From: Candidatus Woesearchaeota archaeon
Lineage (GTDB): Archaea > Nanobdellota > Nanobdellia > Woesearchaeales > 21-14-0-10-32-9
Assembly: GCA_047602735.1 (NCBI GenBank)
Contig: JBLKOK010000004.1
Coordinates: 81,033 to 145,032 of the forward strand
Length of the DNA: 64,000 bases
Direction of reading: 5' to 3'
Shown: piece by piece, positions 43,772 to 56,488 of the stretch
Layout of the letters: each line of letters begins with the position of its first letter
How positions within the stretch are numbered: position 1 is the first letter of the stretch
Program-made: the position numbers and the translations under genes
The notes under the pieces: model-generated
Seen by the model: only the letters and a program-made list of their open reading frames with translations
Databases searched by the model: none
What the model was told of the DNA's origin: nothing

Positions 43772-44938
43772 ATGAAATTTATAGATTGGTTATTTAATAA
43801 AACTAGTGAAGATAAATATATAGAAAACGTTTGTCAACTGAACTGGTTTTTTGAAAAGGTTTCTGAATTACTTTTTTTTCTGAAAAAGCAGATAGATGAA
43901 CTGGAAAAAAAAGAGTCTGATGTGCTGGATGAGTTGGAAAAACGCAATCTTAGTCCTGCTCAATTTGAGGAGTCTTATTATGAAGAAATATTTAAACATT
44001 ATCTTCCGGTATTAAAAAAAAATGTTTCTAGAAATAATAAATACATAGGAAATGTTTCTGGAGACTTATTAGCTTTAATAAAATCTATAAAAAAGTTACA
44101 TGACGAACTTGAATCGGAAAACCTCGATGAACTGGTTAGACTAAGAAGAGAACGAAGAGAAGAACACATATTTTTTAAAAGATTTATTGATTGTTGTGAG
44201 AAGGAAGGTTTAAATGATTTATTAGCTGATTTAAAAAAGTGTATTTCGAACCTTATTAATCATTCTAATACAGATAATTATGAGAATAATGTACTGATTA
44301 TAGAAGCTCTGTTGAAAGAATTGCATTCTACGCTAGAAAAATTAAAAGAAAAATTGGTGAAGTTAATGAATTTATGTAGACCGGAAATTGCTGCACTGAA
44401 TAATTTAGAAGTTCGTTTGAAGAAAAAGTATGAAGAAAAAAATATTGATGTGACTGTTGATAATGTGTCTATAGAATATTATAGAGTATTTGAAATTTTG
44501 AAAAATAGCGATAAAAAAGAATTAAGTGATGAGAATTTACTATCTATCTTATTACTTTTAGGTAAATTAAAAAAAGTTCAATTTGAGCCATGTACTCAAC
44601 AAGAAATTGAGGCTCTAGGTTTAATTGCTCATGGAAATCAGGTGAAATTTGGACATAACTATTTATTTTTATATAAAGGCGACTTTGGAAAGGGTAAAAA
44701 ATACTTTACCATTGATAGAGATGCTCATTTATACTACTTAAGGTTTAATTATACAGAGAATCAACAAACAATAAACTGTTACGTATCCTCAATCCCTAGT
44801 CATGTAGATATTCAGATTGGAGGACACAGACATAAAAAGGAAGATATAAAAGGTGTGTTTGACGATTTTTTAAAAGATATTAGGTCTTCTTTGCTGGTTA
44901 AAGTAGATGGAGTGAGTTATGAGTTTGAGCAGCAATAG
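43772..44938 (+). CDS. Hypothetical protein, coiled-coil plus globular C-terminus
   Basis: 388-aa ORF starting MKFIDWLFNK. Confidence 0.65.
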   Translation: MKFIDWLFNKTSEDKYIENVCQLNWFFEKVSELLFFLKKQIDELEKKESDVLDELEKRNLSPAQFEESYYEEIFKHYLPVLKKNVSRNNKYIGNVSGDLLALIKSIKKLHDELESENLDELVRLRRERREEHIFFKRFIDCCEKEGLNDLLADLKKCISNLINHSNTDNYENNVLIIEALLKELHSTLEKLKEKLVKLMNLCRPEIAALNNLEVRLKKKYEEKNIDVTVDNVSIEYYRVFEILKNSDKKELSDENLLSILLLLGKLKKVQFEPCTQQEIEALGLIAHGNQVKFGHNYLFLYKGDFGKGKKYFTIDRDAHLYYLRFNYTENQQTINCYVSSIPSHVDIQIGGHRHKKEDIKGVFDDFLKDIRSSLLVKVDGVSYEFEQQ

Positions 44939-44961
44939 TTTAATATATTTCTGATAGGGCG

Positions 44962-45798
44962 TTAATGAGTGTGATTTTTAATAATGTTAACAAGATCATC
45001 ATTAATTTTGTTGAACCTCATTTTAAATCCTTCGTTTGGGTTTGATATTGAAAATAAAGATAGTTTACTGAATTGTAGTTCTGTTCTCAAAAATAGTTTT
45101 TCTAGGTTGGCTGTGTTTATTATATTGTCTGAATCAAAAATGTGGGTGAAAAAGTATGGTTCTTGACCTCTAAGATGAGCAGGTTGTCTTTTATATATGT
45201 CAACTTGCCAATATGCATCAAAAAAATTAATGGCTTGTTTGTAATCTCCTACTAAATGTAAAGAATGTCTATCTTTAGACTTATTTTTATATTTAATATC
45301 GGCTATTATGTTTTCTTCGTCATAAATCAGTTCTTTGTTTTTTGATTCAGGGAATATTATTGAATGAATTATTTGTTCCTCTTTGTAAAAATCTAGTATC
45401 TCTTCAAATAAATTTCTGAATTTGTTAATATTCTTTTTTAAAGCCGTGTCATCTCTTTCTAATTTGTTGTCTTCGTATTTGTCATTTAATATCAGTCCTG
45501 CATTTCTAGTGCACAATTTTTCTCTGTGATATAAATTTACATCGTATCCTTTGAAAGATTCAGACGGATTTTGCTGAGCAAAAACATATTCCTTTTTATA
45601 TATTGATTTATGGTTTATAGGATTATCAATGTCTTTTGCGTTTTCAAAGAATAAATGATATCCTTCTGGATGTGGTTTATAATTTGATTCTTCTCTACCT
45701 ATTCTATATATATTTGGTTTAATTTCGGATGATTCTTTTTTATCTGAACTGTTTATCCTTGATTTTGATTCTAAACGATATATTTTATCTGATTCCAT
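44962..45798 (-). CDS. Hypothetical protein
   Basis: 278-aa ORF 4 nt downstream of the RtcB-like gene. Confidence 0.6.
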   Translation of the reverse strand: MESDKIYRLESKSRINSSDKKESSEIKPNIYRIGREESNYKPHPEGYHLFFENAKDIDNPINHKSIYKKEYVFAQQNPSESFKGYDVNLYHREKLCTRNAGLILNDKYEDNKLERDDTALKKNINKFRNLFEEILDFYKEEQIIHSIIFPESKNKELIYDEENIIADIKYKNKSKDRHSLHLVGDYKQAINFFDAYWQVDIYKRQPAHLRGQEPYFFTHIFDSDNIINTANLEKLFLRTELQFSKLSLFSISNPNEGFKMRFNKINDDLVNIIKNHTH

Positions 45799-45802
45799 TT
45801 TA

Positions 45803-46834
45803 TCAATTTTCCATTATCACTGATATAGGTTTTAATCTTGCAACTTTTTTTACCAGTCCTTGTTCTTGTAAATAGTTTACTATAGGTGTTGAACTTCTAT
45901 ATGCTGCAGGAGCTTGCTCTATTGCATTAGAGTAAGGTACGTTTAATGAAACATCTCTAAACATTTTTTCTACATCTTTTTTTCCAAATCTTCTTTTAGT
46001 TTTGCTCGTATCCATTAATCTTCCGCATCCGTGATTAATCGTGTCTAAACTTTCGTGTAGTTCTCTGCCTGGTGATACTATATAGCTAAAATCTGTAGGA
46101 TTGCCTGCAATTATTGCTAAGCCATTTTCAAATTCTTGAGTTCCTTTTTGAACTCTATAATAATCGCCAAATTCCACGATTTGATTATGTGGTGTGTTTA
46201 TTAGCTCTTCATATGAAATATTGTGCTCGTACTTGGATTTAAAATATTGTAGGGCTGTTTGTGTAAGATTATCTCTATTTTTTTTAGCTAAATCAACCTT
46301 TCTTTTAAAATCTTTAATATATGCTGAATTATTAATTGATTGGTTTTTGTGTTTTAAAAACGTTTTATAACCTTCTTCTCCACTACCGCTATGAACAAAA
46401 ATAAAAATATTATTTTTAAAATGTTTATGTTGTTTTGAGTAAACTATATCTGGAATCATTATATCTACAAAATGATTTCCTTTTCCTATGAAATGGTTAT
46501 AATTAGTCGTTATTAAGTCACTAAGCTCTTTAGTAAGCCTATCTGTTTTTTTTTTATTAATACTTTTCTTTTTTTGAAAAGTTTCGGGGTTTATCTTCAC
46601 GCTGGTAAGTTTATACCCGCAACCTATATCGTGGCCAATAAAACTAGGATCTAGAAATTCTGATGTGCTTATAATACTTGTCGAGCCTGTTGGCAAGCCT
46701 ATATTTGGATTTATATCTGGAAAGAATATTTGATAATCTATTTTGTGTTTTCTTTTTATATCTTCGTTAATACCAAGTGCTTTTCTGGCGCCTACTGATT
46801 TAATTATGTCTTCGGGTATGAAATATTTTTCCAT
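45803..46834 (-). CDS. Compact RtcB-family RNA ligase
   Basis: FPD, GHDIGCG, GNHF, VHSGS, HN, NHGCGR, EQAPAAYR; ATG 46834 lies 30 nt from TTTATAAA. Confidence 0.85.
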   Translation of the reverse strand: MEKYFIPEDIIKSVGARKALGINEDIKRKHKIDYQIFFPDINPNIGLPTGSTSIISTSEFLDPSFIGHDIGCGYKLTSVKINPETFQKKKSINKKKTDRLTKELSDLITTNYNHFIGKGNHFVDIMIPDIVYSKQHKHFKNNIFIFVHSGSGEEGYKTFLKHKNQSINNSAYIKDFKRKVDLAKKNRDNLTQTALQYFKSKYEHNISYEELINTPHNQIVEFGDYYRVQKGTQEFENGLAIIAGNPTDFSYIVSPGRELHESLDTINHGCGRLMDTSKTKRRFGKKDVEKMFRDVSLNVPYSNAIEQAPAAYRSSTPIVNYLQEQGLVKKVARLKPISVIMEN

Positions 46835-46919
46835 GCAAAAAAGTATTACTTCTTTTTTTATAAACATTACTATTTTCACAACCAACTAGTAGTGTTAAAA
46901 AATAAAAAAATAAAAAAAG

Positions 46920-48158
46920 TTAATTTCTAAACGAATCTTTCACCATTTGACTGATTTCATTTACAGAGTATCTATCTGCAGGGCTTTTGCCTTCATCAAG
47001 TATTCTGTATACAGGTCTCAAAGCATCGTCAACGCTTCTAGCATCGTATCCAAGACTAATAAGACCTTCTCTAGCATTTAAAGCCTTATCTTTAGCCACA
47101 TCTAAAGTAGATCTAAATCTGCCTCCTTCATCAATCATAACGCCTTCAAGTCCATCTTTTAGAGCTGATTCTCTATTAAACCTAAGGTTTTCCATTGATT
47201 GAAGCTTTGATTCGTACTCTAAAAGCCCTATGTACATTAAAGTCGCTGCAACATCTTCCTTCGCGCTTTGCTGAGAGCTCAAACTCCTCATCTCCACAAG
47301 TGGTAAGTAGCCATTTGACTTTTCAACAAACTTAATTCTTGCATCATGCCAATTAAGACCTATACCTATCTCAAAAGCTGCAGGCTCATGATCCAAAATA
47401 AATGGATGTGAGCTAACTCTTGTAAAGTAATCTTCTATACTACTAAAGTACCTTTTTGGAAGACCTATTCTAGTTTCTTTATCTTCATTTCTTTCAACAC
47501 TATTTCTAGTATCGTGAGTCTCTTCCCAAACCTTTACTCTACAGTCTTTAAAACCACTTTCTTTGGAATTTATGTACTTTGCATTTCCAAAAATAGCTAC
47601 AAGGTATGGACTTATACTCAAACTTTTATTCAACTTATCTACAGCATCATCAACTGACTTGCAATCAACATTAAGCTGCAGAGCGTTAAACAGTCCTACG
47701 TGCCTTGCATCAAGCTCAGGAAACAAAGTCTTAAACTCCTTAGACACTCTTTCATTGTTAAAAGAAGGCACTTTCTCGTACTTGTCTTCGTTTGGAGTTA
47801 TTGCAAAATCTTTCAAGTTCAGATTTGGTATGCTTCCAACACTAGATACTTTTTGCTTTATCTTGCTAAGCGTATTGCCAAGATCTGTTAAGTAAGAATC
47901 TTTAAAGCCTTCTAAACTTCTAATTAAAAGAGGATCAGTTACAACCTCTATTTGATGATGTCCAAGCTCTTTTGCAATCTTTCTATCCTTAACGTCTTGT
48001 CTAGTGGCAGGTTTTGCATTTTCATCAAACACTCCAAGTTCAAGCTCTATTCCAACTTTTGGAACAGACTCTTTAGATCCTACAACTCTTGACAAAACTT
48101 TTTTTGACTTCTCATCAAAAGCCTTTTTCATTCTCTTCTCAAGATCTAAAGATGTCAT
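46920..48158 (-). CDS. Glutamate-cysteine ligase family 2 (GCS2/YbdK-like) carboxylate-amine ligase
   Basis: GIELE, ELGHHQIEV, LQLN, WHDARIK, VEMR. Confidence 0.78.
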   Translation of the reverse strand: MTSLDLEKRMKKAFDEKSKKVLSRVVGSKESVPKVGIELELGVFDENAKPATRQDVKDRKIAKELGHHQIEVVTDPLLIRSLEGFKDSYLTDLGNTLSKIKQKVSSVGSIPNLNLKDFAITPNEDKYEKVPSFNNERVSKEFKTLFPELDARHVGLFNALQLNVDCKSVDDAVDKLNKSLSISPYLVAIFGNAKYINSKESGFKDCRVKVWEETHDTRNSVERNEDKETRIGLPKRYFSSIEDYFTRVSSHPFILDHEPAAFEIGIGLNWHDARIKFVEKSNGYLPLVEMRSLSSQQSAKEDVAATLMYIGLLEYESKLQSMENLRFNRESALKDGLEGVMIDEGGRFRSTLDVAKDKALNAREGLISLGYDARSVDDALRPVYRILDEGKSPADRYSVNEISQMVKDSFRN

Positions 48159-48955
48159 TTTCGCTCACCTACTCCTACTAAGAAATCATCTTTTTTACAG
48201 ACCTTACAGTTACTAACTTGCATAACTTCTCCACTTAAAGGCGATTTAACTGCAACCTTTCTACTGCCTACTAATACGTGGCCTAAGACTTCTCCTTTAA
48301 TAACGCTCTTACTAGGACTTACCCTTGCAACAAACAGTCCTTTACTTGGAGAAACTACTTTAATTCTGCTCAAAGTCTTCCTCAAAGTCTTAACAGCCAA
48401 CCCATTTTTAATTAGCACCGCAACAACTCTTTTTGCAACTAAGCTTACTTCTCCTTGCCTTAAATTACTAAGACAATTCATCTCAACTGCAAAATTGCTA
48501 ATTCCAATCTTACTTAAATTAACACCAATTGAGCCATCAAACTCGCTACTAATTTGCCAAATTTGCTCAGGTCCAAAAACTTCAACGTTTTCATCAAAAT
48601 CTTTAAACTGTATGCAAGTAAGCTTTGTCTTTGAATGAAAACAATGCAAATCAATAACTAAATCTGCTCCTTTCAAAAAACTAGCCAACTTAAAAGCTAA
48701 CCTTTCTTCGTGATCTCCACTTTCTTTGCCGGGAAACACCCTATTTAAATCGCTGTCAACAAACCTTTTATTTTGTTTTAAAGCCAAATTGTTAACTTTA
48801 ACTATTTCAAGTGTTCCTTTACTTACTTTACTTTCCTTAATTTTTTCTGCTACAAGTAAAGGGCTATGCTCATCTCCATGAACTCCAACTAGCAAAACAA
48901 CTCTTGGGTTGCCTTTGCCTAAACTTGTAATTTGCAGACTATCGTCTATATTCAT
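48155..48955 (-). CDS. Succinylglutamate desuccinylase/aspartoacylase (M14-like) with C-terminal barrel-sandwich domain
   Basis: GVHGDE, RFVDSDLNRVFPG, DLH, VE; AGGTGA RBS before ATG 48955; ATGA overlap with the GCS2 gene. Confidence 0.88.
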   Translation of the reverse strand: MNIDDSLQITSLGKGNPRVVLLVGVHGDEHSPLLVAEKIKESKVSKGTLEIVKVNNLALKQNKRFVDSDLNRVFPGKESGDHEERLAFKLASFLKGADLVIDLHCFHSKTKLTCIQFKDFDENVEVFGPEQIWQISSEFDGSIGVNLSKIGISNFAVEMNCLSNLRQGEVSLVAKRVVAVLIKNGLAVKTLRKTLSRIKVVSPSKGLFVARVSPSKSVIKGEVLGHVLVGSRKVAVKSPLSGEVMQVSNCKVCKKDDFLVGVGERK

Positions 48956-49008
48956 ATTAATCACCTATATATCATCTAAATTTTGTTGTAATAACCTTAC
49001 TTTAAAGA

Positions 49009-49083
49009 AAAAATAGCTTTTCGCGAGCACAAATTAAACTGTCTACTCCAGATTTAATTGTTTTCTCACTTAACACTATTTTT
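49009..49083 (-). promoter_or_regulatory. Long multi-stem hairpin downstream of leader peptide 1
   Basis: AAAAATAG/CTATTTTT, GTGAG/CTCGC, AATTAAA/TTTAATT, CTG/CAG with a 7-nt loop; 3' arm runs into a T-rich tract. Confidence 0.6.
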
Positions 49084-49087
49084 AGCA

Positions 49088-49159
49088 TTAAGCAAAATAG
49101 AAATAATCATAGCTAAAGCTAACTAATTGGTCTGTGTCATTTAATTTTTTAGCTATCAT
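49088..49159 (-). CDS. 23-aa leader/precursor peptide 1: MIAKKLNDTDQLVSFSYDYFYFA
   Basis: TATA box about 30 nt upstream of the ATG; paralog of identical length at 51762-51833. Confidence 0.65.
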   Translation of the reverse strand: MIAKKLNDTDQLVSFSYDYFYFA

Positions 49160-49195
49160 AAAAATAGTGAAATGACTAACCATTTATATATTTTG

Positions 49196-49215
49196 TTATT
49201 ACTAAAAAGTAATTA
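49196..49215. promoter_or_regulatory. Palindromic operator-like site (TTATTACT-aaaa-AGTAATTA)
   Basis: Lies between divergent TATA boxes; related sites occur at five other promoters. Confidence 0.55.
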
Positions 49216-49257
49216 AATAATAGAAAAGTATATAAATTATTGTCACTATCTAGTAGT

Positions 49258-50673
49258 ATGGATGATTTGGAAAGTAGATTAAAACAAGAATTTGATGACT
49301 CGCCTGTTGTCAGATCCCTTGTCAAAGACAAAAAACTCTTCTTAATAGATAGCAATATAAACAATTCAAACAAAAAAACAGATGAAAACATAAAAAAAAT
49401 AAAACAATACACAAAAGAAACCTACGACAAAGAACCTGAAGTTGAAATAATGGATTACTATTCATTTATTGAATCAAGTTTAGGAATGAGTTTTTCAGAA
49501 TATTTGCAAAAAACAAAAGACTTATCTGCTCATGAAACAGCAAAATTTGCAAAAGAGCAACTAGAAAAATCAAACTTTAACCCAGATGATGGAGTATACT
49601 TAGTAAACCAAAACTCAATAGTAAATGGAGTTTCTAAAAACAAACACGAGCTCACTAAAGATGCCATACTAAACAAAGTACTAGCATCATATTTAGCAAA
49701 AAAAGGTGCTGACTCAACACTTTTAACGCTTGACGAAGAATCAGCACTTACAAATTCTAATGTTTCGCTATCAAAACCTTTTAATGCAGATATATATACT
49801 ATAAATAAATTTTACAAAATAGGGTTATACAACTCATTAGACATGCTAAGGGATAACTCTGCAAAAGCTCACCACGATCTTTTAGCTTACAAAAATAGCA
49901 GATTTATAGAAAACTTAGCAGGATCATTTAGCACAACAAACCTGCAGAGCACAATCCCAAAAAAATTCGCATTTATAACTAACAAAATAAAAAAAACAGG
50001 AAAATTTGACGTTATATCTTTAAACGAAAGATTAGAAAATATAGATTTTAGTAAATACTCTGCTCTGTTCATAGATAACACTTGGAATTCTGATGAAAAC
50101 AATGATTCGAAAATAGGAGGTGGGTTTGAATTCTTAAAAAAACTAGGAATAGAAATAATACTTTGTGCAAACACACCAAGAAAAGCAAAAGAAGCAATAA
50201 ACAAAGAAGCCATAACAAAAGAATCAGTAAAACACCACCTAAACAAAATAAAAAATCTTCCAAAAACTAAAAAAGAATATGTTTTAAACGTTTTAAGCGA
50301 TATAAAATATCCAAAAAACCTCTCGAAAAGAATAGTCCACGCAGACATGCACCTAGGAAACATGGTTTTTGACGAAAAACAAGTAACGGGTCTATTTGAT
50401 TTCGATGATTGTTTTTATGGTCCAAAACTAATGGACATAGCCTCAATAATAAGATATGTTTGTTTTTATGACAAAAAACTAGATAAAAAAAGAGTAAACA
50501 TATTCTTAGAAGAATACCAAAAATACGCGGCGCTTTCAAAAACAGAAAAAGCAAACCTTTGGCAAATAACAAGACTATTCAACATAATACACTACGTATA
50601 CAACTTATATGATGAAAATAATTGGAAAATAAAGAAAAACCACGAGTATTTTGAAGAAGAAATAAAAAAATAA
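49258..50673 (+). CDS. Chimeric protein: N-terminus paralogous to 51936 ORF (partial REC-like) fused to duplicated APH-kinase C-lobe
   Basis: NLQSTIP..FAFIT.K...GKF.VI and ALFIDN are shared with the 51936 ORF; C-terminal about 160 aa is nearly identical to 42846-43754. Confidence 0.75.
   Translation: MDDLESRLKQEFDDSPVVRSLVKDKKLFLIDSNINNSNKKTDENIKKIKQYTKETYDKEPEVEIMDYYSFIESSLGMSFSEYLQKTKDLSAHETAKFAKEQLEKSNFNPDDGVYLVNQNSIVNGVSKNKHELTKDAILNKVLASYLAKKGADSTLLTLDEESALTNSNVSLSKPFNADIYTINKFYKIGLYNSLDMLRDNSAKAHHDLLAYKNSRFIENLAGSFSTTNLQSTIPKKFAFITNKIKKTGKFDVISLNERLENIDFSKYSALFIDNTWNSDENNDSKIGGGFEFLKKLGIEIILCANTPRKAKEAINKEAITKESVKHHLNKIKNLPKTKKEYVLNVLSDIKYPKNLSKRIVHADMHLGNMVFDEKQVTGLFDFDDCFYGPKLMDIASIIRYVCFYDKKLDKKRVNIFLEEYQKYAALSKTEKANLWQITRLFNIIHYVYNLYDENNWKIKKNHEYFEEEIKK
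50186..50663 (+). repeat. Direct repeat copy 2
   Basis: Matches 43258-43735. Confidence 0.95.
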
Positions 50674-50677
50674 AAAA

Positions 50678-51632
50678 TTATTCCTTGAAGTAACTTGGTC
50701 TATTATTCTCATAAACAAGCTCTAAGTGTTTTGCAAACTTTTTTTTAACTAATTTAAATTTGCCTGTTTTTGTTTTGACTGCTACGTTATGCCAAGGAGT
50801 TCCCCAATTATCATTTGTACCTATAAGATTAATTCCGAATTTATTATTTGCTGTACTATGTGGATGTATTGATAATCTTATATGGTTTGGGTACTTATCT
50901 TTTATGAGTGAGTCGTAAGCTCGACTTCTTTGAACCATTTTTAAAGCTATGTTTTTACATCTTGCTATAAACTTCTTATTAGATTCGTATTTAGTCAAAT
51001 CGTCTATCATAAATCTGGTAAGTCCTAAGTATAAATTCTTAGTATCAACAGATTCTTTTATCTCTGATTTGACTTCGCTTAAAGACATTCCGTATTTATC
51101 AATTAAGTTGTATCTTAACTTATCGAAGTTTTTCTCTTGCATAAGATCTTCTAAGTTAACAAAAGAAACGTATTTGTTTAAATTCATACGTTTAAGTTCT
51201 TCGTGGTAGTTTGTTATATCTTCATCACTTACATTAATAAGATCTGAAAATACTCTTCCGTCGGATACAATTAAAACGTTAGCTCCTTCATCATATATAT
51301 TTTTTATTTCTTCACATATATTATTCAAATTTTCAAGAGCTAACTCTTCTCCTTTATCTGGAAGTCTACCTAGTACTTTTGTCTTCGTATTTGAAGATTT
51401 GCAGGGAAAACCTGGCAAAACAAAATTTATTGGTTCATTTAATAATATTTTGTTGATTATTTGTTCTTGTAGCAAAAATTTGCCTTTGCTCTCGAATAAA
51501 TCTGGTTTTCCTTTTCTTCTATGCTTATCTATTATATTTGTTATTTTATTTGTTTTTTCAGCTAAAAAGATATTTATCTTGTGCTGAACCTCTATCTAGT
51601 TTAATACTATCTTCTATTATGTTTTCTATCAT
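50678..51632 (-). CDS. Isocyanide (isonitrile) synthase, PvcA/Dit1/IsnA family; 5' part out of frame by one base
   Basis: LPGFPCKSSN..KVLG.LPD.GEELAL, SDGRVFSD, IRLSIHPH, KFGI.L, WGTPWH. The RBS-led ATG at 51632 hits TGA after 24 codons, while the main frame is open from about 51595. Confidence 0.88.
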
Positions 51633-51666
51633 TTTAATTTACCTCGCTTCTTCGTTGTTTTTATTG

Positions 51667-51761
51667 ACTTTATAATTAAGAAGTGATGGTTCACAAAAAC
51701 ATGAAAAATTAGCTTATATCTAAAAATTCGTGTTTATTTGCTTTAAATCACTTTTTAAAGT
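51667..51761 (-). promoter_or_regulatory. Long multi-stem hairpin downstream of leader peptide 2
   Basis: AAGTGAT/ATCACTT, AAACAcGAA/TTCaTGTTT, TTAG/CTAA with a 7-nt loop; outer ACTTTA/TAAAGT. Confidence 0.6.
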
Positions 51762-51833
51762 TTAAGCAAAGTAGAAATATTCATAGCTAAAGCTAAATAA
51801 AGAGTTTTTTTGTTTTCTATTTTTAGCTATCAT
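51762..51833 (-). CDS. 23-aa leader/precursor peptide 2: MIAKNRKQKNSLFSFSYEYFYFA
   Basis: TTTAAATA 29 nt upstream of the ATG; conserved ends with synonymous (TAT/TAC) and conservative (D/E) changes versus copy 1. Confidence 0.65.
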   Translation of the reverse strand: MIAKNRKQKNSLFSFSYEYFYFA

Positions 51834-51874
51834 AAATCTTAAGAAATAACTTTTTATTTAAATAAATTACTATT

Positions 51875-51894
51875 TTACTACTATTAAGTAACTA
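51875..51894. promoter_or_regulatory. Palindromic operator-like site (TTACTACT-atta-AGTAACTA)
   Basis: About 12 nt from each of the two divergent TATA boxes. Confidence 0.55.
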
Positions 51895-51935
51895 AAAAAC
51901 ACAATATTTATAAATGTGTGGTGTTTAATAAAAAT

Positions 51936-53813
51936 ATGTCGCTAGAGAACACAGTAGGTGAATTATTTGATATAGAGAACGATGTTGTAGCTAGAAGTAT
52001 GGCTAAAAACACGTCTTTGATAGTCTTAACAAATGAAATTGTCAACAGCGATCAACACAATGAATTTGCAAAAGCTTGGCAAAACATAGAATCTTTTTCA
52101 GAAAATAGTGTGGTTACTCATTTCTCTTATGATTTAATGCTAAAAGACTTATTAGGTATGGATAAATATGGGTTTATTGAACACACAAAAAATCTTGACA
52201 GCTTTGATAAAATAAAAAGCTATTTTGATATATTGGCTGATGATAAAAAACCAAATATACTTGGACAAAAAGAAAACTACTTGATAACTGTAAAGGGGGT
52301 TGACTTTTTAAATAAAGAAAACTTTGAACAAGAAGTGGCTAGATATCAAAGGGAAAAAATGCTTGCAGATCTCTTTTCAGAATACATAAATACTAAAACG
52401 GACAGTACAGCTCAAGTAATAGAGAGAAAAAATAGGGTTGTAGGAAATACTATAGAGTTTCCAGAATCAGATAATGAATTCACAATTGATTATTTACATG
52501 ATAAATTAAATAAATTAAGACATGATGTGGGGGATAAATTAAACGAGGAATTTATGACGGGTTTATCTAAAAAATATCAAGAATTTAATTTGCAAAGTAC
52601 TGTTCCAAACGGTTTTACATTTATAACTGATAAAAGAAATATAGATGGAAAGTTTAATATAATAGATTACACGGAAATTCCAAGCACTGAAGAATTAAAC
52701 AAAAACGGGGCTTTATTCATAGATAATATGTATAGTTTTGTGTGGGTAAAACCAAACACTAAGTTGGGACATGGAATAAATATACTTGATAAAGTAAAAG
52801 ATAAATTTAACGGACCTATATTTTATCAAACAGCACATAACTTAGAAGATTTAACTGAAGATGAAATAAATGAAATAGAATCTAGGGGGGCTTTAATACT
52901 TCCAAAAAATGTAGCTCCTAAGCTAAATAAAAGTAAAATTGCTGCCTTAAAAGAAGTGGCATTATCTAGCTTCTTATCAAAAGATGAAATAGTTGGTCAG
53001 TATTATACCAAAGCAGAATTACCGAGAGGACAAAATCAACCGGTTAGAACAATTATTGAAGATAAAGAATACTTCATAACATTTACAAAGGCAGTAAATC
53101 AACTACACAAAACAAATAATGTTATTAGAGATGTTATTACTAAAAATCAAGATTTAGATGAAGAATTAGTCCATAAGATGTATGTTTTAAGTGATTTTCA
53201 TTCAAAAACAAGACGGGCATTATGGTTTAGAGAAATAGATTCTAATCTATTTTATGAAAAAAGCACAGAGGACTACATAGAATATGAAAATTTAGAAAAA
53301 AATATCAGGGGATACTTATCTGAAAACTTTAAAGAATTATATGATTCTATTGTTGATAAGCATAGCGGTTTTGATTTAACGGTTTTATCTCATAATGATA
53401 CTAAATGGGATAATTGGTTTGAAGATAAAATATTGGGTGATTTTGGTCATGCAGCAGCTGGAACAGAATATAAAGATATATCAAGAGCTCTGATAACTAA
53501 AAATTCATTAGAAAATAAAGCTTTAGATTTAGATCAAGTAGACAAAGCAATAGAATCTTACATAGAACTTAGAAAATCAACGGATTACGGATTCTTTGAA
53601 AATATTCATGGAGATTTCAAAAAAAGAGTTTATGAGTCTTTATTTATTGAAAGTTTAAGACTTGCTAGTTATGAATCTGATAAATCAAAAGAGTTAACGG
53701 ATGGATTACTAGGTATTGCTAATCAGATGTATGATGTCTTATATGATTCAATGGTCGAAGAGGTTGAGCCTGTTTACGCAAGCGAGGTAGAGATGTCTGG
53801 AAGCTTCTCCTAG
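51936..53813 (+). CDS. Multidomain protein: unknown N-domain, REC-like domain and APH/choline-kinase-like domain
   Basis: ALFIDN...GHGINIL...PIFYQTA...RGALILPK (receiver-like); SHNDTKWDNW and LGDFG (kinase catalytic motifs). Confidence 0.65.
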   Translation: MSLENTVGELFDIENDVVARSMAKNTSLIVLTNEIVNSDQHNEFAKAWQNIESFSENSVVTHFSYDLMLKDLLGMDKYGFIEHTKNLDSFDKIKSYFDILADDKKPNILGQKENYLITVKGVDFLNKENFEQEVARYQREKMLADLFSEYINTKTDSTAQVIERKNRVVGNTIEFPESDNEFTIDYLHDKLNKLRHDVGDKLNEEFMTGLSKKYQEFNLQSTVPNGFTFITDKRNIDGKFNIIDYTEIPSTEELNKNGALFIDNMYSFVWVKPNTKLGHGINILDKVKDKFNGPIFYQTAHNLEDLTEDEINEIESRGALILPKNVAPKLNKSKIAALKEVALSSFLSKDEIVGQYYTKAELPRGQNQPVRTIIEDKEYFITFTKAVNQLHKTNNVIRDVITKNQDLDEELVHKMYVLSDFHSKTRRALWFREIDSNLFYEKSTEDYIEYENLEKNIRGYLSENFKELYDSIVDKHSGFDLTVLSHNDTKWDNWFEDKILGDFGHAAAGTEYKDISRALITKNSLENKALDLDQVDKAIESYIELRKSTDYGFFENIHGDFKKRVYESLFIESLRLASYESDKSKELTDGLLGIANQMYDVLYDSMVEEVEPVYASEVEMSGSFS

Positions 53814-54596
53814 ATAATAAAGGTCTAATGCTTCTTTTGGCTTACAATTACTCAATTTATTAGGTAATATTTTATGAATTAGCTTGGCGCTTTCATCGTG
53901 ACTTTTTCTTAATTTTTCTAGTTCATTAGAAAAGTAGGCTTTATGAAACTCTTCAAATACTATTAATAGTTCGTCTTTAAATTCATGTTTTTTATTAGTT
54001 CTACAAAGTGCGTGTTGTAAAAGTATAAGTCTTGATATTATACTATATTTATAAAAATTTTTTTCCGGATTTTCTTGGTTTTGTGTGTTAATTATTACTC
54101 GCATACAATAATTTCCATAATTATTTAACTTATCTTTCAAATAATCTTTATTTGATTCTTCATCAAATGTTTGTTTTATTATAAAAAACATTTTTCTAAT
54201 TATTTGATCTAAATTGTTTTGTTGAGGTTCTGCTATACTTGAAATAATTATTTTGTCTTTTTTTACTTCTGTAACTTCAAATCCTAGTAATCTATTGCTA
54301 ACTATTTGTTCTATAAATTCTAATTTATTTGTTTCTCCTTCTAAAATTATTTTTGTACATCCTGATCTATATCTATTATTTAATATAACTCTTAAGCTTC
54401 TATCATCAAATCCAGATATATTTATCTTTGATATTTTTTCTTTTATGTCTAGAGGGTTTGTTTTTAATACTAATTCATTATTTTTTTGTTCTAAGAATAT
54501 TTCTGAACTCTCGTCTATATTGTTTGATCTTATCCATTTTATGGGGAGAGTTATGGTGAAACTATTATTTCCTTGTTTTATTATTTTTCTTTGCAT
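53748..54596 (-). CDS. AbrB-domain phosphate-uptake-regulator (PhoU-like) protein
   Basis: RKIIKQGNNSFTITLPIKWI AbrB domain, LLGFEV, helical C-terminus. Confidence 0.8.
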   Translation of the reverse strand: MQRKIIKQGNNSFTITLPIKWIRSNNIDESSEIFLEQKNNELVLKTNPLDIKEKISKINISGFDDRSLRVILNNRYRSGCTKIILEGETNKLEFIEQIVSNRLLGFEVTEVKKDKIIISSIAEPQQNNLDQIIRKMFFIIKQTFDEESNKDYLKDKLNNYGNYCMRVIINTQNQENPEKNFYKYSIISRLILLQHALCRTNKKHEFKDELLIVFEEFHKAYFSNELEKLRKSHDESAKLIHKILPNKLSNCKPKEALDLYYLGEASRHLYLACVNRLNLFDH

Positions 54597-54740
54597 GTAA
54601 AAAGAGTAATACTTATTTATATATAAAATTAACTATTTTTATGTTAAAAACATATTCTTTATATTTTTTATATTGATTAAATATATATTTTTAGATTTAT
54701 TTACTACTATTAAGTTTTAAAAAAACATTTGGTGGTTGAA

Positions 54741-55070
54741 ATGGATGAAGGAAAACTTGAAAGAATGATAAGAAAAACAGTAGGAAGAGGAAGAATAACT
54801 GTACAACAAGCAAGAGATGATATAGATAAAGCTAAACAATACGGTATGCGATCTATAGCAAACCGTTCTGAGAGCTACTCTGATACTCATAAAGTTAAAA
54901 CAGGTAGATTCAAAGGCGTTTTTTCTGTTGATCTTGACTTAATAAACAGAGCTTCAAACAATACGGGTAGAGGAAACTACAGGTTAGGTATGGATAAGCA
55001 TGGAAATGAGCTTTACATATTTGCTCATAACTCTGATGGATCATACAAACCAATAGTTTCTTTTAACTAA
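54741..55070 (+). CDS. Hypothetical basic protein (possible RNase/toxin fold)
   Basis: GGTGG RBS; GRGNYRL...YIFAH. Confidence 0.6.
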   Translation: MDEGKLERMIRKTVGRGRITVQQARDDIDKAKQYGMRSIANRSESYSDTHKVKTGRFKGVFSVDLDLINRASNNTGRGNYRLGMDKHGNELYIFAHNSDGSYKPIVSFN

Positions 55071-55083
55071 TAGGTGAAATAAA

Positions 55084-55911
55084 ATGGAAAAAAACAATTC
55101 AAAAAAAATAAACTCGGATAACAAAATATTGAATAAAATTGTAGTGGGGGGTGGACCTTGTTGGCCTCCACACATTCTAAATCCGTTAGAAGATGTACTA
55201 AGACAACCAGAAGAAAGCCCTTTTAGACCTCTTGTTGTTGGCTTTGATTTTCCTGAAGAAAATGGACTGCCAGGAGGATCTGGAAGTGGTGGAAATGGAC
55301 CTCCTGGAGGAGATGATTTTCTAGGTTTAGAATATTATGTGAATAGGCCTTCTGTTGATCCTAGACTAATAAATTTAGCTAAAAAAGTTTATAACTCAAA
55401 CAATAAAGAAAGAGCTAAACATTTAGTGAGAGTTATAGCAAATCACTATGAAAGTATGCCTGGAAATGCTATGGCTAATCTTAGCTCTTTTGCAGATGAT
55501 AGCTTTAATGGTTTTGGAGAAGACTCAGATATTGTAAGAGGGCTCGCTAAAGGAGCAATAAGTTATTTGGCAGATAAATTACCATATAAAATAAGTAATC
55601 CTTCAAATAAAGGTTATGGTGATTATTTAACATCACAAAATAAAGACTTTGAATCTAATGAAAAAATTGAGCTTTATACAAACCACGAGGTTGACCTAAA
55701 TATTAATTCAAAATCATTAGGTTTAGAAAAAAATAGTGTTTACAAAAATATAGTTGGTAATGAATATATTACAAAGAAAGAAGAAATATCTTTGAGTAAT
55801 ATGGTCAATTCTGATTATGTATTGAATTATAACAAAGAGTCTAGAGAAGATTTTTTTGCTAATTCAAAAAGAAAGCAGTCAATAAAGAATATGTCATACA
55901 CGAATAGGTGA
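55084..55911 (+). CDS. Hypothetical protein with Gly/Pro-rich segment
   Basis: AGGTGA RBS; LPGGSGSGGNGPPGG. Confidence 0.65.
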   Translation: MEKNNSKKINSDNKILNKIVVGGGPCWPPHILNPLEDVLRQPEESPFRPLVVGFDFPEENGLPGGSGSGGNGPPGGDDFLGLEYYVNRPSVDPRLINLAKKVYNSNNKERAKHLVRVIANHYESMPGNAMANLSSFADDSFNGFGEDSDIVRGLAKGAISYLADKLPYKISNPSNKGYGDYLTSQNKDFESNEKIELYTNHEVDLNINSKSLGLEKNSVYKNIVGNEYITKKEEISLSNMVNSDYVLNYNKESREDFFANSKRKQSIKNMSYTNR

Positions 55912-55912
55912 A

Positions 55913-56488
55913 ATGAAAATGAAACAAGATAATATGTTAAATGAAATCGTGGAGAGTTTAGTAAATGATAGTCTTGACTTTAAAGAGAATAAGATACAAT
56001 TATTCAAAAATTATGGTCAAATGGATCCATTCTATTTACTAGGTGATGATTTTATAGTAGAAGATGATGACGAAAATATAATGAACTTTTTAACTAATAG
56101 AATGAGGGGTTACTCTGCAAATATAATCCAAGAAAAATCAGAAAATAACAGGATTTATTGGAGAGATAACGATGAAGTAACTCAAAACAAAACTCATTAC
56201 TTAGGAAAAACAATAGTGGATACATTAGCAATAGAAATAGATGATGGGATTCAAATTTACAATAGTTTTGGAAGACCAATAAATAGTTCGGACAGACCTA
56301 AATTAATAACGGATAAAACTTTTGAAGAAAGTTTGCATGATCTAAAAAATGTAAGTGAAAGTTTAGTAAAAAAAGTATTGAATTTATACAACGACAAATT
56401 ACAACAAAGAAATAAAACTAGGTATGTTCCTTTAATATTAAAGGATAATGTGGTAGAACAAAATAGGAATTACAACATACTTAAATAG
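55913..56488 (+). CDS. Hypothetical protein
   Basis: AGGTGA RBS; in tandem array. Confidence 0.65.
   Translation: MKMKQDNMLNEIVESLVNDSLDFKENKIQLFKNYGQMDPFYLLGDDFIVEDDDENIMNFLTNRMRGYSANIIQEKSENNRIYWRDNDEVTQNKTHYLGKTIVDTLAIEIDDGIQIYNSFGRPINSSDRPKLITDKTFEESLHDLKNVSESLVKKVLNLYNDKLQQRNKTRYVPLILKDNVVEQNRNYNILK

Follow-up and report, generated by a model that had tools for sequence, protein, structure and literature searches.

The duplicated cassettes and their promoters

The DNA discussed here is a 64,000-nucleotide (nt) stretch (the window; positions 81,033 to 145,032 of contig JBLKOK010000004.1) from a Woesearchaeota archaeon whose genome assembly, G000, comprises 817,310 bp in 7 contigs with ~30% G+C and is 76.5% complete. 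On the minus strand of this stretch lie two short open reading frames (ORFs) of 72 nt, each running from ATG to TAA, which head two transcription units and which, together with their promoters and the RNA that follows, form a cassette that may act as a structured regulatory 5′ leader. Mini-ORF 1 (49088..49159; 23 codons plus TAA, MIAKKLNDTDQLVSFSYDYFYFA) is predicted to be a leaderless upstream ORF (uORF) of the transcript encoding an AstE-like protein and a GCS2-family ligase, while mini-ORF 2 (51762..51833; 23 codons plus TAA, MIAKNRKQKNSLFSFSYEYFYFA) precedes the gene for a PvcA-like isonitrile synthase. Both can be read directly from the sequence, as a preliminary description of this DNA had done. 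Mini-ORF 1 is listed with 31 amino acids (aa) because copy 1 has an additional in-frame ATG at 49183, within the TATA box region; the other copies lack this ATG.

The two paralogs align without gaps and are identical at 14/14 of the first 14 nt, at 12/24 positions in the middle, and at 32/34 of the 3′ 34 nt, with the TAT/TAC and GAT/GAA differences that had been pointed out before. The conserved 35-nt 3′ block is found at exactly two sites in the window when up to three mismatches are allowed (0.00 expected from 100 shuffles), and at exactly two sites genome-wide. The duplicated element exceeds chance, and the proposal that a conserved, duplicated element heads two transcription units is confirmed. 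A third copy is present in G001, a Woesearchaeota metagenome-assembled genome of the same genus, in which the mini-ORF ortholog (L004:935-1012, minus strand; 25 codons, MIAKKLLKNVIFNSSFSYVFYFYFA) is located upstream of the AstE-like ortholog. The AstE-like proteins of G000 and G001 share 64% amino-acid identity. In the G001 ORF, the start block, SFSY, and the FYFA-stop are as in G000, the indels amount to a net +6 nt, and the frame is open and retained in this second species. Moreover, six Tyr/Phe among the last nine codons, reported earlier for the two copies in the window, hold for all three mini-ORFs. Each of the three cassettes lies upstream of enzyme genes and in their orientation; in copies 1 and 2 the short ORF precedes an ATG led by a Shine-Dalgarno (SD) sequence, and the layout in G001 is alike.

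In copy 1 the TATA box TATATAAA (49183..49190, minus strand) is separated from the mini-ORF ATG by 23 nt, and in copy 2 the corresponding box TTTAAATA (51855..51862, minus strand) by 21 nt, in agreement with the geometry described previously. In the G001 ortholog a TATA 8-mer lies 23 nt ahead of the ATG. A genome-wide start profile was built on the first ATG of the 685 G000 ORFs of at least 120 codons. Here, TATA-like hexamers are most frequent at -31 to -27, a spacing that the mini-ORFs match, and GGTG accumulates at -12 to -10. The TATA-like peak indicates that leaderless starts are common in G000. Both genes divergent from the cassettes have a TATA 8-mer, 21 nt, and then ATG, and the promoter of a long ORF in the relative G012 has an 8-mer, 23 nt, and ATG. 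From these promoter sequences we infer that the transcript starts at the mini-ORF AUG, i.e., that the mini-ORFs are leaderless. In addition, the TTATG ahead of the first predicted hairpin (hairpin 1, see below) is invariant in the three sequences though unpaired. A loose scan of G000 for TATA-plus-ATG mini-ORFs upstream of long ORFs returned 45 cases, which are surely mostly noise. Both cassettes are bidirectional: in each, a second TATA box facing away from the mini-ORF promoter serves a divergent leaderless gene, and the similarity between the paralogous cassettes seems to extend into this second TATA region (49160-49258; 51834-51936).

Downstream and neighboring genes

Ten neighboring proteins were covered by Pfam and NCBIfam scans. 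The Pfam matches bear out the earlier naming of the downstream genes, that is, AstE-like and GCS2 for copy 1 and PvcA-like for copy 2. The AstE/aspartoacylase-like gene (48155..48966 with its SD, minus strand; PF24827, E=6.8e-17; NCBIfam matches below cut-off) has the SD AGGUGA at 48966-48961, 6 nt before the ATG at 48955. Its stop overlaps by 4 nt the gene for the GCS2-family carboxylate-amine ligase (46920..48158, minus strand; PF04107, E=2.1e-08). The family of the GCS2-like protein is small (23 proteins), with relatives P0122-P0126 at 90-50% identity, and GCS2 as such is related to the glutamine synthetase (GS)-like amidoligase fold class. After the GCS2 gene follow, on the same strand, a short RtcB-family ORF (45803-46885; 360 aa, with RtcB model matches well under the cut-offs) and a 278-aa ORF that has no family match (44962-45798). 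These two ORFs may share the AstE-like/GCS2 operon.

The body of the PvcA/DIT1-like isonitrile synthase is an open frame at 50678..51577 on the minus strand (PF05141, E=6.8e-83; NF045653 gives 194 bits, under its cut-off of 600). According to its family annotation, the substrate is Tyr or Trp. The distance from the mini-ORF 1 stop to the AstE-like ATG 48955 is 132 nt and that from the mini-ORF 2 stop to ATG 51632 is 129 nt, consistent with the distances given earlier. The accompanying claim that both enzyme genes have starts led by a ribosome-binding site holds for ATG 48955; at ATG 51632, the SD (GAGGU, 51645-51641) leads a 24-codon ORF (51558..51632, minus strand; MIENIIEDSIKLDRGSAQDKYLFS, with TGA at 51558-51560), whereas the body of the PvcA-like gene is read in the +1 frame.

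Divergent from copy 1 on the plus strand is an APH-family kinase gene (49258..50673; PF01636, E=3.7e-13) with a leaderless arrangement in which TATATAAA (49229-49236) is followed by 21 nt and ATG. Divergent from copy 2 is a 625-aa ORF with no family match (51936..53813, plus strand), again leaderless, with TTTATAAA (51907-51914), 21 nt, and ATG. An ORF with an AbrB/MazE domain is located at 53748-54596 (PF04014, E=3.2e-08).

Relatives and distribution

The pattern search for MIAK...SFSY...FYFA followed by a stop, which the preliminary description had suggested, gave one genome-contig match, the G001 copy, and no match in metagenome contigs or in viral contigs. Among 401 genomes of the order, the tail pattern with one mismatch allowed matched G000 only, and when 41 genomes were compared with copy 1 by BLASTN, the sole homologous match was in G001; in the two of the other short BLASTN matches that were inspected (L005 and L007), the shared part is generic promoter sequence. 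A covariance model run on 151 genomes of the order returned only both G000 copies and one unrelated match (E=0.026), and in a locus search of metagenomes based on the AstE alignment none of the 203 pattern matches was confirmed. The aromatic mini-ORF is absent at the AstE paralog, at the G017 homolog, at four GCS2 homologs (37-45% identity), and at one PvcA homolog (35%). Likewise, the mini-ORF peptides were not found in a collection of 15 billion proteins.

The AstE-like gene is present in 2/17 other genomes of the family, with a close ortholog in G001 only. The PvcA-like gene was found in none of the 400 other genomes of the order sampled and in none of the 4 of the same genus, and a sample of 400 genomes of the phylum has it once (G514, 35% identity). 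Those of its relatives that carry names are bacterial, plus one fungal; P0002 and P0003 are 67% and 50% identical, respectively. This patchy distribution, together with the bacterial and fungal named relatives, suggests that the gene is accessory. Judged from these sequence comparisons, it was probably acquired horizontally and then given a copy of the cassette. The locus also points to a rare archaeal isonitrile-synthase gene. A search of the literature on isonitrile synthases and archaea turned up only fungal work, with no mention of archaea. In G001, the cassette is preceded by two co-directional ORFs that resemble, by eye, an ABC-2 permease and an ABC ATPase. Since the G001 cassette does not come after a divergent kinase gene, the kinase/PvcA segment looks like a G000-specific insertion between two direct repeats of the cassette.

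This arrangement raises the possibility that the second cassette is a neutral remnant, i.e., a promoter region copied when the PvcA/kinase segment was inserted, in which case the similarity would reflect recent duplication rather than function. The accessory status of the PvcA-like gene agrees with such a history, as do the repeats that directly flank the inserted segment. A recent copy, however, does not account for the patchy conservation, in which blocks of 100% identity stand beside a middle of 50%, or for the retention of the blocks in another species whose flanking protein is 64% identical, and we consider a remnant highly improbable.

G000 is present in lake-water samples (runs X1-X8), and matches of some contigs from other lake metagenomes break off within the cassettes. 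A match on an X10 contig ends at the mini-ORF 2 stop (51761) and one on an X9 contig ends 10 nt inside mini-ORF 2 (51823), while one X10 contig joins 48966 to 49079 and omits the post-ORF leader of copy 1. Either strain variants in which the cassette is incomplete or fortuitous matching of low-complexity sequence, at 80% likeness, may explain these ends and this joint.

Conservation of nucleotides and of the reading frame

Comparison of G000 with G001 shows identity at 14/14 positions of the 5′ block of the ORF and at 31/34 of the 3′ block and tail, but at 8/24 in the ORF middle and 19/31 in the spacer between TATA box and ATG. In the AstE-like gene, the DNA is 67.8% identical between these genomes, third positions 57.1%, and third positions of identical residues 66.9% (113/169). 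In the conserved codons of the mini-ORF, third positions are identical at 13/14 between the orthologs. Moreover, the 5′ and 3′ blocks of the ORF are reverse complements of each other. Because synonymous sites are also invariant and the ends of the ORF are mutually reverse-complementary, the constraint acts on nucleotides. Hence, selection on a peptide, which had been deduced from the conserved ends, does not follow, given the 13/14 frozen third positions compared with 66.9% in the AstE-like gene. The ORF middles (49118-49145; 51792-51819) are well under the 57% third-position identity of the adjacent gene, and this part either evolves fast or is under no constraint at all and subject to indels. 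As regards the reading frame, the conserved blocks close frames +1 and +2, whereas the start, the stop, and frame 0 are kept in all three copies.

These data bear on the idea that the peptide itself is functional, either as a precursor or carrier similar to those of ribosomally synthesized and post-translationally modified peptides (RiPPs), acted on by the GCS2 ligase, the AstE/M14-like hydrolase, the APH kinase, or the PvcA-like enzyme, or as a modulator of the GS-fold ligase. The ORF is open and in frame, its C-terminus SFSY...FYFA is invariant, and genes for a ligase, a hydrolase, and a kinase adjoin it; a hairpin after the precursor gene is also common in RiPP clusters. Peptide selection, however, leaves the frozen synonymous sites unexplained, the middle third is unconstrained, conservation at the peptide rather than the nucleotide level, as would mark a RiPP precursor, is not what is seen, and the peptides are absent from the protein collection mentioned above. 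Among the 10 neighboring proteins, Pfam and NCBIfam gave AstE_AspA, GCS2, RtcB, APH, DIT1_PvcA, and MazE only, and none of the families that define a RiPP class (RRE-containing enzyme, YcaO, LanB/C/M, radical SAM, ATP-grasp, and the like). The chemistry of PvcA-type enzymes, which takes place at a free alpha-amine, is hard to square with an amino acid tethered at the C-terminus of a peptide. An archaeal 23-aa precedent on a GS-type enzyme is sP26 of Methanosarcina mazei (10.1101/2020.05.06.080432). Taken together, a functional peptide appears unlikely, and the substrate or signal role put forward as an alternative in the preliminary description finds no positive evidence.

The conserved blocks can also be viewed as DNA. 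Two palindromes of the TAGCTA type (ATAGCTAAA; TAGCTTTAGCTA) are perfectly conserved at +4 and +40 of the two promoters, where a shared transcription factor might bind just downstream of both, and the AbrB/MazE-domain protein encoded close by would be a candidate for this factor. An operator of this kind is nevertheless very unlikely: the spacing of the blocks shifts by 6 bp between the orthologs, which would alter the helical phasing, G000 has no further occurrence of the motifs, and the kept frame and stop as well as the second hairpin are left unexplained.

Predicted RNA folding

The conserved first and last blocks of the mini-ORF are predicted to form hairpin 1, which has 9 bp, with the 5′ arm AUAGCUAAA beginning at +4 and the 3′ arm UUUAGCUAU. 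In copy 1 (49109..49156, minus strand; arms at 49156-49148 and 49117-49109) pair probabilities are 0.83-0.89, and in copy 2 (51783..51830, minus strand; arms at 51830-51822 and 51791-51783) 0.78-0.91. The diverged ORF middle makes up the loop, whose length is 30 nt in either copy of G000 and 36 nt in G001. Across the three sequences, 25/27 pair cells have probabilities of 0.78-0.95, and the weakest two, both in G001, have 0.65 and 0.36.

Hairpin 2 is predicted to form between the last codons plus the stop of the mini-ORF and a segment downstream, which reads UUAAGYGAR or UUUAAAGCAAA. In copy 1 (49064..49097, minus strand), UUUUGCUUAA pairs with UUAAGUGAGA; in copy 2 (51737..51771, minus strand), CUUUGCUUAA pairs with UUUAAAGCAAA with one bulge. 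Over its 13 pairs, 94.7% of cells are paired compared with 31-50% in slid controls, and 6 pairs are changed on one side and 1 on both sides. In copy 2, hairpin 2 is absent from the unconstrained minimum-free-energy fold of the 217-nt leader.

An alternative fold emerges when ribosome occupancy is imitated by keeping the ORF plus 3 nt single-stranded. In all three leaders, the segment after the stop is then predicted to be engaged in a long helix, the other strand of which lies 60-70 nt downstream. The long helix and hairpin 2 share nucleotides and are mutually exclusive alternatives for that reason. The predicted long hairpin of copy 1 (49009..49083, minus strand; AAAAAUAGU:GCUAUUUUU) includes the T6 run at 49013-49008, that of copy 2 (51676..51758, minus strand) combines AAGUGAU:AUCACUU with inner helices, and the analogous helix predicted for G001 is AAAAAAAUAGU:ACUAUUUUUUU. 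Between the orthologs, the A-run and the U-run of the long helix lengthen jointly, from A5:U5 to A7:U7. With respect to overall stability, the full leaders beat 99/100 mononucleotide shuffles in all three cases (z -2.3, -3.1, and -2.8), and for the first 136 nt of copy 1 dinucleotide shuffles give z -3.52.

Three further structural candidates were rejected. Two compensatory changes in a third hairpin hang on the alignment register chosen, a pairing of AUCGUC with the AstE coding start is seen in the G001 fold only and is not conserved in copy 1, and for a C/D-box small RNA there is no CUGA box by eye and no Rfam match. In Rfam (E<=10, 44000-56000), neither mini-ORF or leader gave a match except for a chance match to mir-1898 on the plus strand (51681-51753, E=4.9), which falls within leader 2.

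A proposed leaderless uORF in a structured 5′ leader

The reading that we favor, with a probability of roughly 45%, is that the structured 5′ leader harbors a leaderless uORF and was duplicated so that two transcription units are regulated together. Each copy would constitute a cis-regulatory 5′ leader of ~200 nt, in which an archaeal TATA promoter begins the transcript at or beside the AUG. With the transcript starting at the AUG, ribosomes would load directly, without a leader, on the uORF (23 codons in G000). The conserved first and last blocks of the uORF would form hairpin 1, and the Tyr/Phe-rich last codons plus the stop would provide the 5′ arm of hairpin 2. Once the end of the ORF is occupied, the freed downstream arm would close the longer helix ~60-70 nt further on. 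The SD-led enzyme gene would begin ~130 nt past the uORF stop. In this model, the progress of the ribosome over the Tyr/Phe codons would select the fold, and the choice of fold would tune the AstE-like/GCS2 operon and the PvcA-like gene jointly. The elements, their conservation, and the geometry of the promoters are established from sequence; translation of the uORF, switching between folds and its direction, and the nature of the signal are parts of the model that we infer. As modeled, the leader layout is that of an attenuator with the output step missing.

A number of observations weigh against this reading. To begin with the output, a scan for terminator-like sites of the bacterial type found none in either leader, although an archaeal signal could escape such a scan. 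In the sense strand of long ORFs, runs of at least six T occur at 1.16 per kb compared with 3.98 per kb for A-runs, a T/A ratio of 0.29 where 0.21 is expected. Because such T-runs are not depleted in coding sequence, the T6/T7 run in the leader is not evidently a terminator, and oligo-T alone probably does not terminate transcription efficiently in this organism. In the predicted folds, the SD remains largely unpaired (mean paired probabilities of 0.34, 0.56, and 0.14). As candidate outputs, a bacterial-type terminator and sequestration of the SD have both been discarded on these grounds, and the attenuator envisaged in the preliminary description is thus left with neither a terminator nor an SD-sequestering helix.

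The start of the PvcA-like gene presents a second difficulty. Its frame has no ATG, GTG, or TTG ahead of TTG 51475 and no canonical in-frame start near the SD. The 24-codon ORF fails to align with the N-termini of PvcA homologs, and P0002, the closest homolog, starts where the PvcA-like frame reads KITNIIDKHR. This arrangement could reflect a frameshift within a T5 run, the loss of the start codon, or the presence of a second uORF. An 849-nt X9 contig that spans 51018-51866 is 97.6% identical with 20 differences and is gap-free, so there is no gap in it near the PvcA-like start.

Further points against the switch concern the comparative evidence. Conservation and covariation rest on three sequences, two of them from G000. 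All nine pairs of hairpin 1 are invariant in these sequences, and its conservation therefore cannot tell selection for pairing from selection for sequence. For hairpin 2, 170/500 covariation shuffles reach the observed score, in a test that is without power at three sequences. The first 140 nt of copy 2 do not fold better than dinucleotide shuffles (z -1.16), and the post-ORF leader is identical at 77/119 positions (65%) between G000 and G001, barely over the neutral proxy of 57%. Moreover, the 29 variable codons would stay open with P ~0.11 at 7.3% stop trinucleotides; by our own estimate, the chance of obtaining the open variable codons together with in-frame indels in the absence of coding constraint is a few per cent.

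These same data speak for an element that works as RNA only, in which a 5′-terminal stem-loop (3 unpaired nt followed by the 9-bp stem) and the second hairpin protect the mRNA from 5′ exonucleases or bind a protein, the open frame being incidental. An element of this kind fits the conservation at the nucleotide level best: synonymous sites do not vary within the conserved blocks, which are complementary to each other, the ORF middle that forms the loop is 8/24 to 12/24 identical, which is no better than random for its composition, the loop grows from 30 to 36 nt between the orthologs with the stem retained, and the openness of the variable codons has just the P ~0.11 given above. Set against this are the AUG that coincides exactly with the predicted transcription start site in all three sequences, in a genome where leaderless initiation is common, and the indels that sum to a multiple of 3 and leave the same stop in place. 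In addition, the 18-nt tail between both hairpins is likewise conserved, and the Rfam search described above returned no family for the leaders. On balance, an RNA-only element is a serious, if somewhat unlikely, competitor of the leaderless uORF. If it were correct, the finding would be a genus-restricted 5′ structure of modest interest.

A leaderless uORF does not by itself specify the signal. The aromatic tail was spotted post hoc, and at least six Phe, Tyr, or Trp among the last nine residues are found in 38/5562 (0.68%) of the G000 ATG-ORFs of 15-45 codons. Such tails come in part from the reading of T/A-rich DNA as Phe/Tyr, and the aromatic richness carries less weight than its appearance suggests. 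On the other side of the balance is the probable auxotrophy of the host, a Woesearchaeota member of the DPANN archaea, that had been anticipated: searches of G000 (76.5% complete) yielded neither chorismate synthase nor prephenate dehydratase, and both families were detected in 14/14 control genomes. Together with the use of Tyr or Trp annotated for the PvcA family, this makes for a plausible physiological logic. Specific sensing of aromatic amino acids is doubtful on the present evidence. Were it to occur, a controlled enzyme that consumes Tyr would need a sign of regulation opposite to that of biosynthetic attenuators. The most far-reaching version of the proposal, for which the odds are similarly on the low side, is that this would be the first archaeal regulon in which a leader peptide senses amino acids through the ribosome. 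In this "Tyr/Phe ribulon", a leaderless uORF with Tyr/Phe codons, present in duplicate, would sense the supply of charged tRNA-Tyr/Phe in an aromatic-auxotrophic DPANN cell and jointly gate a horizontally acquired tyrosine isonitrile synthase and the amide ligase/deacylase operon, one sensor cassette having been copied ahead of a new gene.

If the leaderless-uORF reading is true, Archaea would have a new variant of their own of a mechanism known from Bacteria. A working case would imply that leaderless translation and transcription-translation coupling suffice for amino-acid sensors outside Bacteria, and that copying of the sensor in cassette form can wire a horizontally acquired gene into the physiology of its host.

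Comparison with known systems

Leader-peptide attenuation is a textbook bacterial mechanism, and no description of ribosome-mediated leader-peptide attenuation in an archaeon was found in the literature searched. The Escherichia coli attenuators pheL and trpL and the arrest peptide of the TnaC type are SD-led and need a GC-rich terminator or Rho. The cassettes resemble them in having a short leader ORF with the putative regulatory codons near its 3′ end, and in that the end of the ORF lies in a predicted hairpin arm that has an alternative partner. They differ from them in that neither an SD-led ORF nor a GC-rich terminator or Rho dependence was seen.

Among archaeal systems, sP26 is a 23-aa protein of M. 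mazei that is reported to interact with glutamine synthetase (10.1101/2020.05.06.080432). Shared features are the archaeal host, the length of 23 aa, and an enzyme of the GS-like fold as partner or neighbor; this likeness does not come from sequence comparison. sP26 differs in being encoded by a stand-alone gene. In Ribo-seq work on M. mazei (PMC11456600), small ORFs (sORFs) in 5′ untranslated regions are mentioned just as potential uORFs.

In Corynebacterium glutamicum, the aroR leader peptide upstream of aroF contains Phe-Tyr-Phe and responds to Phe limitation, as summarized in PMC11802643. The likeness to aroR would lie in a Phe-Tyr-Phe leader peptide with ribosome stalling at Phe/Tyr codons, as proposed here for the cassettes. 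By the same account, aroR precedes a biosynthetic gene that is induced by starvation through transcription attenuation. By contrast, the genes downstream of the cassettes are not aromatic-biosynthetic, one of them is a probable consumer of Tyr, and there is no evident terminator.

By analogy, the closest match is the set of leaderless polycysteine sORFs of mycobacteria. As reported for these sORFs (10.1101/834739), ribosome stalling at Cys codons opens a structure that hides the SD of the next gene, and several operons, each with its own sensor, constitute a "Cys ribulon". The cassettes would differ from these bacterial sORFs, which are experimentally shown and free an SD, in being archaeal, in using Tyr/Phe codons, in having no predicted SD sequestration, and in being known from sequence alone. 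Furthermore, the Cys sORFs are independent inventions, whereas the copies described here are paralogs that arose by duplication. With the Cys attenuators, the cassettes would share a leaderless first cistron beginning with a 5′ AUG, a run of codons for one class of amino acid, and pairing within the leader RNA. As in the Cys ribulon, each operon carries its own copy of the element, and a joint response of the AstE-like/GCS2 operon and the PvcA-like gene would, in our proposal, follow from that arrangement.

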